Part shown: piece after piece, positions 57,191 to 59,571 of the stretch
How positions within the stretch are numbered: the first letter of the stretch is position 1
Layout: the number at the start of each line of letters is the position of its first letter
Assembly (NCBI RefSeq): GCF_044324875.1
Contig: NZ_CP172185.1
DNA: 64,000 bases
Direction: 5' to 3' (one strand)
Source: Escherichia coli
GTDB taxonomy: Bacteria > Pseudomonadota > Gammaproteobacteria > Enterobacterales > Enterobacteriaceae
Position numbers and translations under genes: made by a program
Notes under the pieces: generated by a model
The model's input: only the letters and a program-made list of their open reading frames with translations
Told to the model about the DNA's origin: nothing
Databases searched by the model: none

Positions 57191-58468
57191 ATGGACTCGA
57201 AATCTCTTGTTGAACTTTCCCATGATATACAATCCGGACTAGGAAACATTGACGTTCCAGATTTTGATAACATCAAAACTATCGGAATGGCATCAATACT
57301 AGCAATGCATATACGCGGATTGGGAGAAATTGATTATGAAGTTTTAAGGAAAGTCAGTGACTTCTTTTTCAACATACCTTCATATGCTTTAAAAAGCGTA
57401 TTGGAAGTACTGGCTGAGATAGAATATGTAGATTTAATAACGAAAGACAAAAAAATATTGTCAGTAATTCCAAACGTTCCTCGATTCAAAGATCTCTATC
57501 AAGGTGTTGGTGATTATTTCACATTTAGCGATCTCAACGAACATGAGCAAGGCACATTGATAATATTATCTAATCTTCAAAACAAACCCGAAAACAGAGA
57601 CAAACTAATTCATTCTACAGGCATCGACAATACTCTTTTTTCTCGTTGTTTAGAGATTGGTGAAAAAGGTAACTATTTTAGAAATTATAGAGCTAGAGGA
57701 AAAAACATCATAGCTAGCCCATTTTATTTTGCCGATAATTTAGAGTCACTTGTCGATATTTCAGCCAAAATTGGTTCGAATGATATTGATGCTGTTTTAA
57801 AAATTATAAAAGATAATCAGGGATGGCCTCTCTCACTGATCGAATCACAATTAGAAATCGGTGGAAAAAAGCTAACAAAAGTACAAAAAGAACTTTTAAT
57901 TGGTTTTTGCCAAGAGGGTGTACTCAAACCCCCTTCAATTGATTTCGGAAACCAAAAACAAGAAACATTCATATTCACACCGAGGCCCGGAAATATAAAA
58001 TTGAATGCAGCTAACAGAGAGATTTATGAACGAGCAATGGCGTTAGTTTCTTGCGTTAGGAAAGGACAATTACTGCACGACAAATATAGAATAAGGCTTC
58101 CAGTTAGGATATTGGAATCATTAAAAGAAAAAGGTTATCTTAATCAAAATTCAGAAGCTGCATCCCAGTATAGGAATCTGGTGTTTTTGAAGGTTGGAAT
58201 GCTAAAAGCTAAGGATCATAACAAGTGGGAATTTCATTTAATAAAAACAGAAGAAAACATTGAAGCATTAGATTTAGCAATAAGTCTCTTAAAAACAGGA
58301 GAACTTGCAAATTTAGAAGTTGATCAAAATGCAAAAATAGCATTAACACAAGATGAAAAATACATTCAATCGATCATTAGCTCCGCAGAACTTAGAACTA
58401 GAGAGAAGATAAAACAAAGCGAGGAAGCAAAAGAACAATTTGAACAACTGATTTTCGAAATGGAGTAA
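57191..58468 (+). CDS. hypothetical protein, island operon gene A (no family recognised)
   Basis: About 425 aa from MDSKSLVEL with AGGTG Shine-Dalgarno 7 nt upstream (ORF-track GTG at 57182 is an alternative); AT-rich codon usage; stop overlaps the gene B start. Confidence 0.75.
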   Translation: MDSKSLVELSHDIQSGLGNIDVPDFDNIKTIGMASILAMHIRGLGEIDYEVLRKVSDFFFNIPSYALKSVLEVLAEIEYVDLITKDKKILSVIPNVPRFKDLYQGVGDYFTFSDLNEHEQGTLIILSNLQNKPENRDKLIHSTGIDNTLFSRCLEIGEKGNYFRNYRARGKNIIASPFYFADNLESLVDISAKIGSNDIDAVLKIIKDNQGWPLSLIESQLEIGGKKLTKVQKELLIGFCQEGVLKPPSIDFGNQKQETFIFTPRPGNIKLNAANREIYERAMALVSCVRKGQLLHDKYRIRLPVRILESLKEKGYLNQNSEAASQYRNLVFLKVGMLKAKDHNKWEFHLIKTEENIEALDLAISLLKTGELANLEVDQNAKIALTQDEKYIQSIISSAELRTREKIKQSEEAKEQFEQLIFEME

Positions 58469-59571
58469 TGGTAATGGCTAACTTAGATAAAGACCTAGGT
58501 TTGAAGCAAGACGCTATAAGGTTTTGCTTGATAAATGGTTACTTGCCATTTTTAGAAGTTAACGTTGAAAACTATAGGGAACTTTCTGATACATCTACAA
58601 TTATAACAGATGTAGATGTTTTAGGGGTTGCTTTTGATATAACTGGAAAAACCAGAAAGATAATTTTCGATTGTAAAACCATTAAAAATACCAGCCCTAT
58701 TAATAGAGCGTTTTGGGCTTCCGGTGTTATGAATTTTTTAGGCTATGATGAAGCATTCATCATATTAAGAAAGAAAGCAAGTGAGGCCCATAGACTTTCC
58801 GCAAAAACAATTAATGTCCACCTTTTTGATGAAGATCAAATGAAAGGATATGCTCAATCATTTTCAATGAATTTCAATATTGATTTAAGCTACTCTACGG
58901 ACATTAATAATTGGATAAGTATACAGGAAGTATATAAAACAGATAAAACCATCCAAAAATATGGCGAATTTTTAGCAAGTTCGGTTCCTACAGAAAATGA
59001 TCCAGCGAAGAATTTGAGAAGATTTATTGCTGCTTTACAAAAAGTGAAGAATGAACTAGACCCTCAAAAAAATAAACACAGAGCAATTTACTTGCATAGT
59101 CTAATGACATTCTCATATATTATGGCATGCTTAGTGCAGCAACTAAGAGGGTTAATTGATTTTGATTATAATCAGAATGAATTCACAAGACTTCTCAAAT
59201 ATTATATCTGGGGAGGGAAGGATAGCTTTATATTAAGACATAAGATGAGAGAACTAATCTCATCTAATGACAGTTCGATTCAAAATATAGAGCCAGAGTT
59301 AAGGAATTGGGATGACTTTATTGAACTCACAAGGAGTCTACTTGACTCTCCTAATGATATAATTAAATGTTGCCATGTGTTACGTGAATTTAGTTTTTTA
59401 GAACTATCCATGCATGACATTAAAAAGGATGAGCAACTATCCACTCTAATTTCAGATAATTCAAGAATTCGTCAATTTATAATGATAATGGCTAGATACT
59501 TAACCAACTCGATGAAAATGCCAAAAGATTTCATTAACGATCTAGTATCAATATTTGATAGATTGAGATAA
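58468..59571 (+). CDS. hypothetical protein, island operon gene B; N-terminal PD-(D/E)xK-like motif
   Basis: 367-aa ORF; TAATG overlap with gene A (alternative ATG at 58474 has GGAG 8 nt upstream); residues 48-70 TDVDVLGVAF...KIIFDCKT fit hD...(D/E)xK. Confidence 0.75.
   Translation: MVMANLDKDLGLKQDAIRFCLINGYLPFLEVNVENYRELSDTSTIITDVDVLGVAFDITGKTRKIIFDCKTIKNTSPINRAFWASGVMNFLGYDEAFIILRKKASEAHRLSAKTINVHLFDEDQMKGYAQSFSMNFNIDLSYSTDINNWISIQEVYKTDKTIQKYGEFLASSVPTENDPAKNLRRFIAALQKVKNELDPQKNKHRAIYLHSLMTFSYIMACLVQQLRGLIDFDYNQNEFTRLLKYYIWGGKDSFILRHKMRELISSNDSSIQNIEPELRNWDDFIELTRSLLDSPNDIIKCCHVLREFSFLELSMHDIKKDEQLSTLISDNSRIRQFIMIMARYLTNSMKMPKDFINDLVSIFDRLR

Follow-up and report, generated by a model that had tools for sequence, protein, structure and literature searches.

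A two-gene cassette in an Escherichia coli genomic island encodes a predicted PD-(D/E)xK nuclease and a tandem winged-helix partner, a plausible new nuclease-based defence module

Among described systems, the Mrr-family and winged-helix-fused type IV enzymes, like the locus reported here, combine a PD-(D/E)xK nuclease with winged-helix modules and have no cognate methyltransferase. McrBC is likewise a coupled two-gene operon with subunits of similar sizes, in which a DNA-binding subunit (a role that is putative for protein A of this study) is followed by a PD-(D/E)xK subunit, also without a methyltransferase, and the nuclease domain of McrC is C-terminal. Hachiman consists of the nuclease HamA and the helicase HamB. 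The locus compared with these systems consists of two genes, A and B, within a window of 64,000 nucleotides of E. coli DNA (contig NZ_CP172185.1, the whole stretch analysed). The pair is regarded as a plausible new nuclease-based defence module, and defence of some kind is judged moderately probable.

The pair is inserted in ppdD within a low-GC island (GC 0.33-0.35, against about 0.52 in the flanks), and the left junction of the island with the 5' fragment of ppdD is at about 56811/56812, window position 56811 being the end of homology to more than 5,400 E. coli genomes. The features of the locus are shown in Table 1. A sequence-only reading of the same DNA had described a low-GC island beside a site-specific recombinase, and both elements were recovered here, the recombinase being a small serine enzyme. 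Gene A is preceded by the Shine-Dalgarno sequence AGGTG (57180-57184), 6 nt before the start ATG. No strong sigma-70 match was obtained upstream of A in a consensus promoter scan of 56812..57190, and no RNA family was found by Rfam in 56500-64000. The hairpin downstream of B had been read as the end of the operon. It is indeed strong, with a folding energy of -21.9 kcal/mol (z = -5.9; none of 200 shuffled sequences folds as well), but the U-run lies on the side of the minus strand, and the convergent recombinase gene is therefore also, or even mainly, terminated by it; the hairpin is probably a bidirectional terminator. Repeats flanking the cassette, as would accompany inversion or capture by the adjoining small recombinase, were sought and none was convincing.

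Table 1. Features of the A-B locus, in window positions (residue numbers of B follow the 367-aa frame)
Feature	Position	Strand	Remarks
Island left end and 5' untranslated/promoter region of gene A	56812..57190	+	homology end and sequence reading
Gene A	57191..58468	+	425 aa; ATG 57191, TAA stop 58466-58468
Gene B	58474..59571	+	365 aa, preferred start
Predicted N-terminal PD-(D/E)xK endonuclease domain of B	58495..58830	+	residues 10-121
E30 codon of B	58555-58557	+	
D48 codon of B	58609-58611	+	
D50 codon of B	58615-58617	+	
D68 codon of B	58669-58671	+	
K70 codon of B	58675-58677	+	
C-terminal all-alpha domain of B	58831..59568	+	residues 122-367
GC-rich hairpin between convergent gene B and recombinase gene	59578..59609		folding energy and sequence
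Small serine recombinase (resolvase/invertase type)	59709..60296	-	NCBIfam serine recombinase families; context, outside the A-B system

Two co-directional and tightly coupled genes of about 425 and 367 aa had been proposed, and the open reading frames together with their homologues confirmed that both are real. The TAATG stop/start overlap reported with them is present in the sequence, where the ATG at 58468 gives the 367-aa B, but the ATG at 58474 is more likely to be the true start, since GGAG at 58462-58465 is located 8 nt before 58474 and only 2 nt before 58468, Met3 is nearly invariant among 62 aligned homologues, and RefSeq annotates the 365-aa form. With this start the overlap is replaced by a gap of 5 nt and coupling is still tight; in homologous pairs elsewhere, the two genes are separated by gaps of 1-9 nt or overlap by 1-14 nt.

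Hundreds of full-length homologues with 40-70% identity were found across phyla, and the A family comprises about 380 clusters at 50% identity in at least five phyla. The pair is present in Gamma-, Beta- and Alphaproteobacteria, Cyanobacteria, Bacillota and Actinomycetota; in Anaerolineae (Chloroflexota) only A was seen, on a contig that ends inside it. Its distribution is rare and patchy. It was found in 6 of 5,426 complete E. coli genomes (about 0.1%), with 100% identical sequences in strains from different hosts, and at least 22 A-B loci were found among 100,044 species representatives. A homologues were present on 10 plasmids; searches of 50,697 phage genomes and of IMG/VR gave no copies.

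Co-occurrence of the two genes had been suggested as a check, and the pair was kept together wherever the contig allowed checking: B was directly downstream of A in 25 non-redundant loci as well as in distant relatives and plasmids. Clustering of the flanking ORFs of the 25 loci showed no third gene common to them, only A and B being shared, and genes for repair, replication or partition were not consistently linked to the pair. Pairwise A identities correlated with pairwise B identities (r = 0.90), a value reached by 0 of 2000 Mantel permutations, and by these sequence comparisons A and B co-evolve. Partner swapping, that is, A-like proteins with other effectors, was sought with an A profile and none was seen; even A homologues at E ~1e-30 precede a B homologue, and modular exchange is therefore unsupported. 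One Halomonas draft genome has a frameshifted A (possibly an assembly error) together with an intact B.

Neither protein matched Pfam, NCBIfam, PHROGs or PDB sequence profiles, nor, significantly, PADLOC, and Pfam was also silent across 58 family members of A and 62 of B, which agrees with the sequence-only reading that no known family could be assigned. The Pfam, NCBIfam and PADLOC searches likewise gave no P-loop, HNH, helicase, methyltransferase or reverse transcriptase match in A or B, as had been noted by eye, and no homology of either protein to a housekeeping or phage structural family was found. The sole PADLOC match, of B residues 128-189 to PD-T4-9_C (14 bits, E = 0.009), was non-significant.

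The structure of B was predicted with high confidence (AF2 pLDDT 90.9, pTM 0.90). The nuclease-like motif noticed earlier in B corresponds to the catalytic-site residues D48-x-D50...D68-C-K70, which are invariant among 62 homologues and lie on a PD-(D/E)xK fold with the alpha-beta-beta-beta-alpha-beta core, the acidic residues and lysine, and the D...(D/E)xK arrangement. E30 is a further predicted catalytic residue. From the model and the alignment, B is predicted to contain an intact metal-dependent DNA endonuclease domain of the restriction/Cap4/Mrr type, and its fold matches include NucS, Hjc, SfsA and VRR-NUC. The C-terminal domain of about 245 aa is formed of confidently modelled helices and does not convincingly resemble anything outside the family in structure or sequence. 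It is the fastest-evolving part of the pair, with a mean column conservation of 0.52 versus 0.71 in the nuclease domain.

For A, about four tandem winged-helix domains were predicted (residues 26-94, 117-175, 197-261 and 304-350), and the fold matches were to winged-helix proteins only, including ScpA, Vps25 and RPA32-type domains. No enzymatic motif was found in A by Pfam, run on A and its family members, or by fold comparison. The earlier description of A as largely helical needs correction, since A is not simply helical, but the Lys/Glu-rich C-terminus described with it holds: the tail (residues 351-425) is acidic, K/E-rich, conserved and modelled with low confidence. Residues 262-303 (nt 57974-58099) are basic and form the most conserved segment of A, also with a low-confidence model; such low confidence is what a binding-induced fold would give. 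In all 253 comparisons, conservation was higher in A than in B. Slow evolution is unusual for an immune sensor, and it could instead reflect binding of a conserved host structure.

Compared with the type IV enzymes, B and the Mrr catalytic domain are related at the level of remote homology and fold, an HHblits match of Mrr type having been listed for B with a probability of 96.8 over 35% of the protein (PMC13092281, Table S10). Pfam Mrr_cat (PF04471) was unmatched by B and its 62 homologues, and PADLOC mREase_IV was also without a match. Unlike in the type IV enzymes, the functions of A-B are placed on two separate, co-evolving proteins; the nuclease of B is N-terminal and followed by the 245-aa helical domain, and the single winged helix is replaced by about four in A. 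McrBC was rejected because A lacks the P-loop/AAA+ GTPase that defines McrB and has a tandem winged-helix fold, and there was no PADLOC match; the nuclease domain of B is also at the opposite end from that of McrC.

Other candidates were rejected on similar grounds. For Hachiman, B had no HamA/DUF1837 match in PADLOC and A has no HamB superfamily-2 helicase or ATPase domain, so that any sensing by A-B must be independent of NTP hydrolysis; in addition, the order in A-B is partner first and nuclease second. For Lamassu, there is no SMC-like LmuB or conserved third gene, and neither protein matched LmuA or LmuB in PADLOC. The structures of CBASS Cap4 and CRISPR Can2-Card1 aligned to the nuclease domain of B only (about 110-147 residues), and the second domain of B, which is all-alpha, contains neither a SAVED nor a CARF sensor; no cyclase, SMC or CRISPR neighbour is conserved at A-B loci and no PADLOC Cap4 match was obtained. 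Classical type II/III restriction-modification was rejected, with no methyltransferase shared among the 25 loci and no methyltransferase motif in A, as was PD-T4-9, for which B had only the weak match given above, A had none and there is no third gene. END nucleases are described in the literature as unrelated PLD-type enzymes.

The idea of a defence role for B is not entirely new. In DefensePredictor (PMC13092281, Table S10; Science 2026), B is among the predicted novel defence genes, as cluster WP_129560323.1, a protein identical to the RefSeq-annotated B, with a mean log-odds of 8.80 against a cut-off of 4. B is one of more than 1000 such predicted clusters in E. coli. In that study, 45% of the tested predictions were validated, and about half of comparable units fail to protect; A-B is absent from its 94 tested transcription units and from its validated tables, and the listing scores B alone, with the pairing with A and the fold of A unreported (PMC13092281). 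The sequence-only reading of the pair as a novel defence candidate is supported by pairing, fold and context, but its novelty is reduced by the earlier flagging of B. In a literature search, no paper's main text named either accession, and an E. coli defence-island survey made no mention of the locus. A peptide-motif search of the supplements of DefensePredictor and of two 2025 discovery preprints showed no validated homologue.

Homology of the island backbone with sister islands starts at 59715-59721 (break at query positions 3216/3222), with the serine recombinase as the first gene of the common backbone, indicating that the A-B cassette (about 56812-59714) is variable cargo. In the A-B slot, one sister E. 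coli island holds HamA/HamB of Hachiman (PADLOC E 1e-119 and 8e-296) and a second holds a ThsB-like TIR protein with a NACHT protein (2e-52 and 1e-81), which is in line with the defence-type setting proposed earlier. A third sister island encodes an NsnB/AriA-like (PARIS/Menshen-like) ATPase (6e-56) between the recombinase and a 119-aa gene, on the other side of the recombinase and thus outside the A-B slot. Elsewhere, the Nodosilinea pair adjoins type I restriction-modification and Mrr genes, the Duganella pair adjoins an AAA_15/DUF3696 ATPase, and the Vibrio pair is carried on a mobilisable element that is inserted in comM and also encodes a PIN protein. In many species the pair stands alone between housekeeping genes (glnS, recQ, ettA, otsA) and the adjoining genes have no PADLOC match, so the association with defence islands is strong only in some lineages.

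Under the preferred reading, the two genes would make up a self-contained immunity module that moves horizontally and acts against invading DNA (phage and/or plasmid). A and B would form a complex, in which the conserved disordered segments of A (262-303 and the C-terminal tail) probably dock on the helical domain of B. A would bind nucleic acid through basic winged-helix surfaces and hold B inactive on the host chromosome until an infection cue licenses or releases the nuclease; this cue may be some feature of the foreign DNA, or else a phage product that acts on the rapidly evolving helical domain of B. Released B would then cut DNA, and the invader would be destroyed or the infection aborted. 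This sequester-and-license mode is the preferred sub-mechanism, although it is put forward tentatively. It is rather doubtful, though conceivable, that A-B founds a new defence family in which an NTPase-free four-winged-helix guard or sensor holds a Cap4/Mrr-type nuclease and releases it on an infection cue. As such a guard, A would grip the nuclease through the private helical domain of B, and the unusually conserved A could read a feature that all invading or damaged DNA shares; the licensing logic would resemble that of Hachiman or Lamassu, but without a motor protein.

Several other explanations were weighed against this defence reading. A split type IV restriction system, in which the winged helices of A read a modified phage base and recruit B to cut with no abortive component, would resemble the Mrr and winged-helix-fused endonucleases on two polypeptides. 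It is considered unlikely: Pfam and fold comparison detected no SRA, EVE, YTH or PUA domain in A, and type IV enzymes have variable specificity domains, to which the four tandem, very slowly evolving winged helices of A bear little likeness. Nor can the common m6A and m5C marks be what is recognised in the E. coli hosts, which as a rule are Dam+ Dcm+. Slightly less probable again is an addiction, toxin-antitoxin-like or inter-element competition function, in which A neutralises a toxic nuclease B and the pair stabilises carrier islands or plasmids or excludes rival elements, with no meaningful phage defence. Tight coupling, the partner-then-nuclease order, obligate pairing, co-evolution and carriage on integrative elements and plasmids all agree with it, but A is far larger and more complex than typical antitoxins, and many copies are chromosomal and flanked by housekeeping genes, where no mobile element that they could stabilise is visible. 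The Halomonas locus, if not misassembled, also weakly contradicts the lethality of B alone. An addiction function would not exclude defence.

The pair could also serve host or element DNA processing (structure-specific cleavage or resolution, repair, replication or partition) rather than immunity, A being a multi-winged-helix organiser like ScpB, MukE or initiator proteins and B a NucS/Hjc-like nuclease. This is improbable. The fold matches of both proteins and the high conservation of A are in its favour, but the similarities are generic to the superfamilies concerned, the spread described above is very sparse, no linkage to genes of such processes is conserved, and the pair is accessory, low in GC and located where sister islands have defence systems as their cargo. 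Missing annotation is the only point for regarding A and B as chance ORFs or decaying pseudogenes in AT-rich DNA, an explanation with next to no probability, since the hundreds of full-length cross-phylum homologues (spread over at least five phyla and sharing dozens of invariant residues) indicate real genes; the confident structure prediction of B and the identical sequence in six E. coli strains also oppose it.

What was an anonymous entry in a machine-learning list has become a defined unit of two genes, in which the catalytic residues to be mutated are named. The cargo position of the E. coli backbone, in which Hachiman, TIR+NACHT and the A-B pair are swapped, is a useful hunting ground for further systems. 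If validated, A-B would be an immune module that is widespread, acts through a nuclease and has a sensor devoid of ATPase, helicase and receptor for nucleotide signals, and one would then have to ask how foreign and self DNA are told apart by winged-helix domains alone.

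Genes A and B form a unit. In other genomes B was found directly 3' of A wherever the contig continued, in agreement with the pairing expected from the sequence-only reading, and a 424-429-aa A homologue is located directly upstream of B homologues in Pseudomonas, Nodosilinea, Duganella, Aeromonas and Vibrio; on Priestia and Streptomyces plasmids A is followed by B too. The search with A returned at least 22 loci among 100,044 species-representative genomes, one of them in an Anaerolineae MAG and the others in Cyanobacteria and in Alpha-, Beta- and Gammaproteobacteria, and when flanking ORFs of 25 non-redundant loci were clustered, A and B were the only common genes. 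When 1.84 billion cluster representatives were searched by profile, the A family comprised 379 clusters, with full-length members nearly all about 415-440 aa; for members at E about 1e-30, the overlapping next gene was identified as B by hhalign and kept the DxDVLGV...(D/E)CK motif. A and B were shown to be obligately linked and co-evolving, with correlated pairwise identities (r = 0.90, Mantel 0/2000), and A was more conserved than B in 253 of 253 comparisons.

As described from the sequence alone, the locus has both ORFs with Shine-Dalgarno-like sequences, a hairpin and a recombinase gene nearby. The TAATG junction is also there, but the overlap of the two genes was not upheld: B most likely starts at the second ATG (Table), since its Shine-Dalgarno spacing is 8 nt versus 2 nt to the first, homologues almost always have Met at position 3, and RefSeq annotates the shorter protein, so A and B are more likely 5 nt apart. 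In other species A and B are separated by up to 9 nt or overlap by up to 14 nt, indicating that the family as a whole is tightly coupled. Shuffled controls fold far less stably than the hairpin (-21.9 kcal/mol, z = -5.9), whose U-tract lies on the minus strand; it therefore serves as terminator either for both convergent genes or for the recombinase alone.

Table. Coordinates of features in the window and in retrieved comparison loci (L-numbers, own coordinates); B residues follow the 367-aa frame
Feature	Sequence	Coordinates	Description
Gene A	window	57191-58468 (+)	425 aa
Gene B	window	58474-59571 (+)	365 aa; 367 aa from ATG 58468
B N-terminal domain	protein B	residues 10-121	alpha-beta-beta-beta-alpha-beta (AlphaFold2)
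B C-terminal domain	protein B	residues 122-366	all-helical (AlphaFold2)
ppdD 5' fragment	window	56764-56847	84 nt
End of core homology	window	56811	ppdD interior
Hairpin	window	59578-59609	
Small serine recombinase	window	59709-60296 (-)	
Backbone	window	59709-64000, continuing beyond	recombinase, 119-aa, 346-aa, 477-aa proteins
Backbone	L001	18210-24856	recombinase, 119-aa, 346-aa, 477-aa proteins
Inserted element	MSI001		A, B, small serine recombinase, 119-aa, 346-aa, 477-aa proteins, 520-aa large serine recombinase
Tandem direct repeat	window	60289-60340	24 nt, AGTATCATTTAAATT...
Backbone interval	window	62259-63241	about 980 bp
IS2 element	MB06101 (L015)	15069-16297	
TPP riboswitches	rcnR-thiM island (L014)	3502-3597; 14828-14924	
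Reduced-GC stretches	window	17001-24000; 6001-7000	GC 0.39-0.48
A-B neighbourhood	Duganella sp. CF458 (L008)	9253-11191	
A	Halomonas sp. SpR1 (L028)	7001-8271	
Distant A-B locus	L038	1588-4687	

Neither protein could be placed in a known family, as the sequence-only reading had held: curated libraries recognise neither, and a Pfam scan of each homologue individually gave no match in 58 A and 62 B homologues. The model of B is confident (AlphaFold2 with the family alignment, pLDDT 90.9, pTM 0.90), and B was shown to have an intact, restriction-type nuclease active site, with the catalytic signature E30, D48, D50, D68, C69 and K70 invariant across the 62 homologues. By Foldseek against AFDB50, the full two-domain fold was found in many 360-400-aa proteins of diverse phyla (TM 0.75-0.96); their automatic names, where given, are Cap4-like or Mrr-type endonuclease. 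The helical domain gave no informative match and is evolving more quickly than the nuclease domain, with a mean column conservation of 0.52 versus 0.71. The model of A is weaker (pLDDT 70.6) and contains four helix-helix-helix-strand-strand units; A was shown to be a non-enzymatic multi-winged-helix partner. Its best-conserved stretch is basic (residues 262-303, pI 10.5), and this stretch and the C-terminal tail are conserved yet low-confidence in the model, suggesting that they fold upon partner binding.

In Halomonas sp. SpR1, A is apparently frameshifted (residues 4-116 and 116-425 in different frames) and B is intact, which reflects an error of assembly or, alternatively, a natural state lacking A but keeping B intact; the latter, if true, bears on the toxicity of B alone. 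At L038, a distant 577-aa A homologue is extended at its N terminus, where DUF2283 matches, and has an extra 109-aa gene upstream, and the downstream B homologue has ECK in place of DCK.

The flank within the window carries the E. coli chromosomal genes aceE, pdhR, aroP, ampE, ampD and nadC, and the core homology shared with over 5,400 complete E. coli genomes ends inside ppdD, where GC content drops from about 0.52 to 0.33-0.42, persisting past the window end. Further reduced-GC stretches occur elsewhere in the roughly 0.52-GC window. The island splits ppdD: the 5' fragment, annotated in strain MSI001 as a prepilin N-terminal domain protein, is kept, and the remainder, outside the window, lies on the far side of the large serine recombinase. 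MSI001 shows 99.8% identity here; its insertion spans about 9.6 kb and ends in the large serine recombinase, which adjoins the remaining ppdD. A-B was present in 6 of 5,426 complete E. coli genomes, at the same site in all six and with a 100% identical cassette.

The backbone, the shared island genes from the small serine recombinase onward, is present at three E. coli chromosomal sites with differing integrases, namely ppdD, rcnR-thiM (tyrosine integrase) and yggR-yggS (another large serine recombinase), and its homology begins at most 12 nt from the recombinase stop codon. PADLOC and NCBIfam gave no family for any backbone protein, the sole match of the 477-aa protein is a Walker-A-type ResIII, and the backbone could serve element maintenance or be another defence module. 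The tandem repeat at the 5' end of the recombinase gene may be a binding site of the recombinase or of a regulator. One backbone interval is without an ORF of at least 60 aa, RefSeq feature or Rfam match; its equivalent in MB06101 contains an IS2 element. The rcnR-thiM islands have a TPP riboswitch annotation on either flank, which suggests that the tyrosine integrase there targets and duplicates the thiM leader.

A-B is probably a defence system in some form. In sister islands sharing the backbone, the A-B position holds HamA/HamB (C325) or a ThsB-like TIR protein and a NACHT protein (PapRG-06-3), and an NsnB/AriA-like ATPase gene pair lies on the recombinase's other side in MB06101, all confirmed by PADLOC. 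A-B occurs in the vicinity of type I R-M, Mrr and an integrase in Nodosilinea, inside a mobilisable element inserted into comM and carrying a PIN protein in Vibrio, and next to a DEAD-box helicase pair on the Streptomyces plasmid; in Duganella sp. CF458 it is inserted directly 3' of rpoC, beside a convergent AAA_15/DUF3696 ATPase and a 175-aa gene, possibly another small candidate for defence. The distribution is sparse, patchy and on mobile elements, with no copies in 50,697 phage genomes or IMG/VR. In the DefensePredictor study (PMC13092281), B (WP_129560323.1) is classed as a 'predicted novel defense gene', with a mean log-odds of 8.80 versus a cut-off of 4 and an Mrr-type HHblits match over 35% of its length; of the units tested there, which did not include A-B, 45% were validated. 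The defence claim is tempered, however, by the many copies that stand alone between housekeeping genes and beside genes without a PADLOC match, and by the slow evolution of A, which is atypical of an arms-race sensor.

A-B is predicted to work most like systems combining a nuclease effector with a DNA-interacting partner (Hachiman, Mrr/type IV, McrBC), and the nuclease fold of B is common to the Cap4, Can2 and LmuA effectors. PADLOC gave no significant model for A-B, which is without the DUF1837 domain and helicase of Hachiman, the AAA+ GTPase of McrBC, the SMC partner of Lamassu, the SAVED or CARF domain and cyclase of Cap4 and Can2, and the methyltransferase of classical R-M; on these grounds membership of each was rejected. 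We tentatively favour a sequester-and-license scheme, like HamB-HamA without the motor, at somewhat less than an even chance: A and B would form a complex, A would bind nucleic acid and restrain or target B, whose variable helical domain may be the regulatory or interaction surface, and activation would lead to DNA cleavage. A split type IV restriction enzyme ranks next and is unlikely. An addiction or competition module is slightly less probable again, and a non-immune DNA-processing role is improbable.

To our knowledge, nuclease-based candidates are the commonest class among new defence predictions. B itself is already on a published prediction list (PMC13092281), and A-B has a clean architecture that occurs widely and could be put to the test at once.
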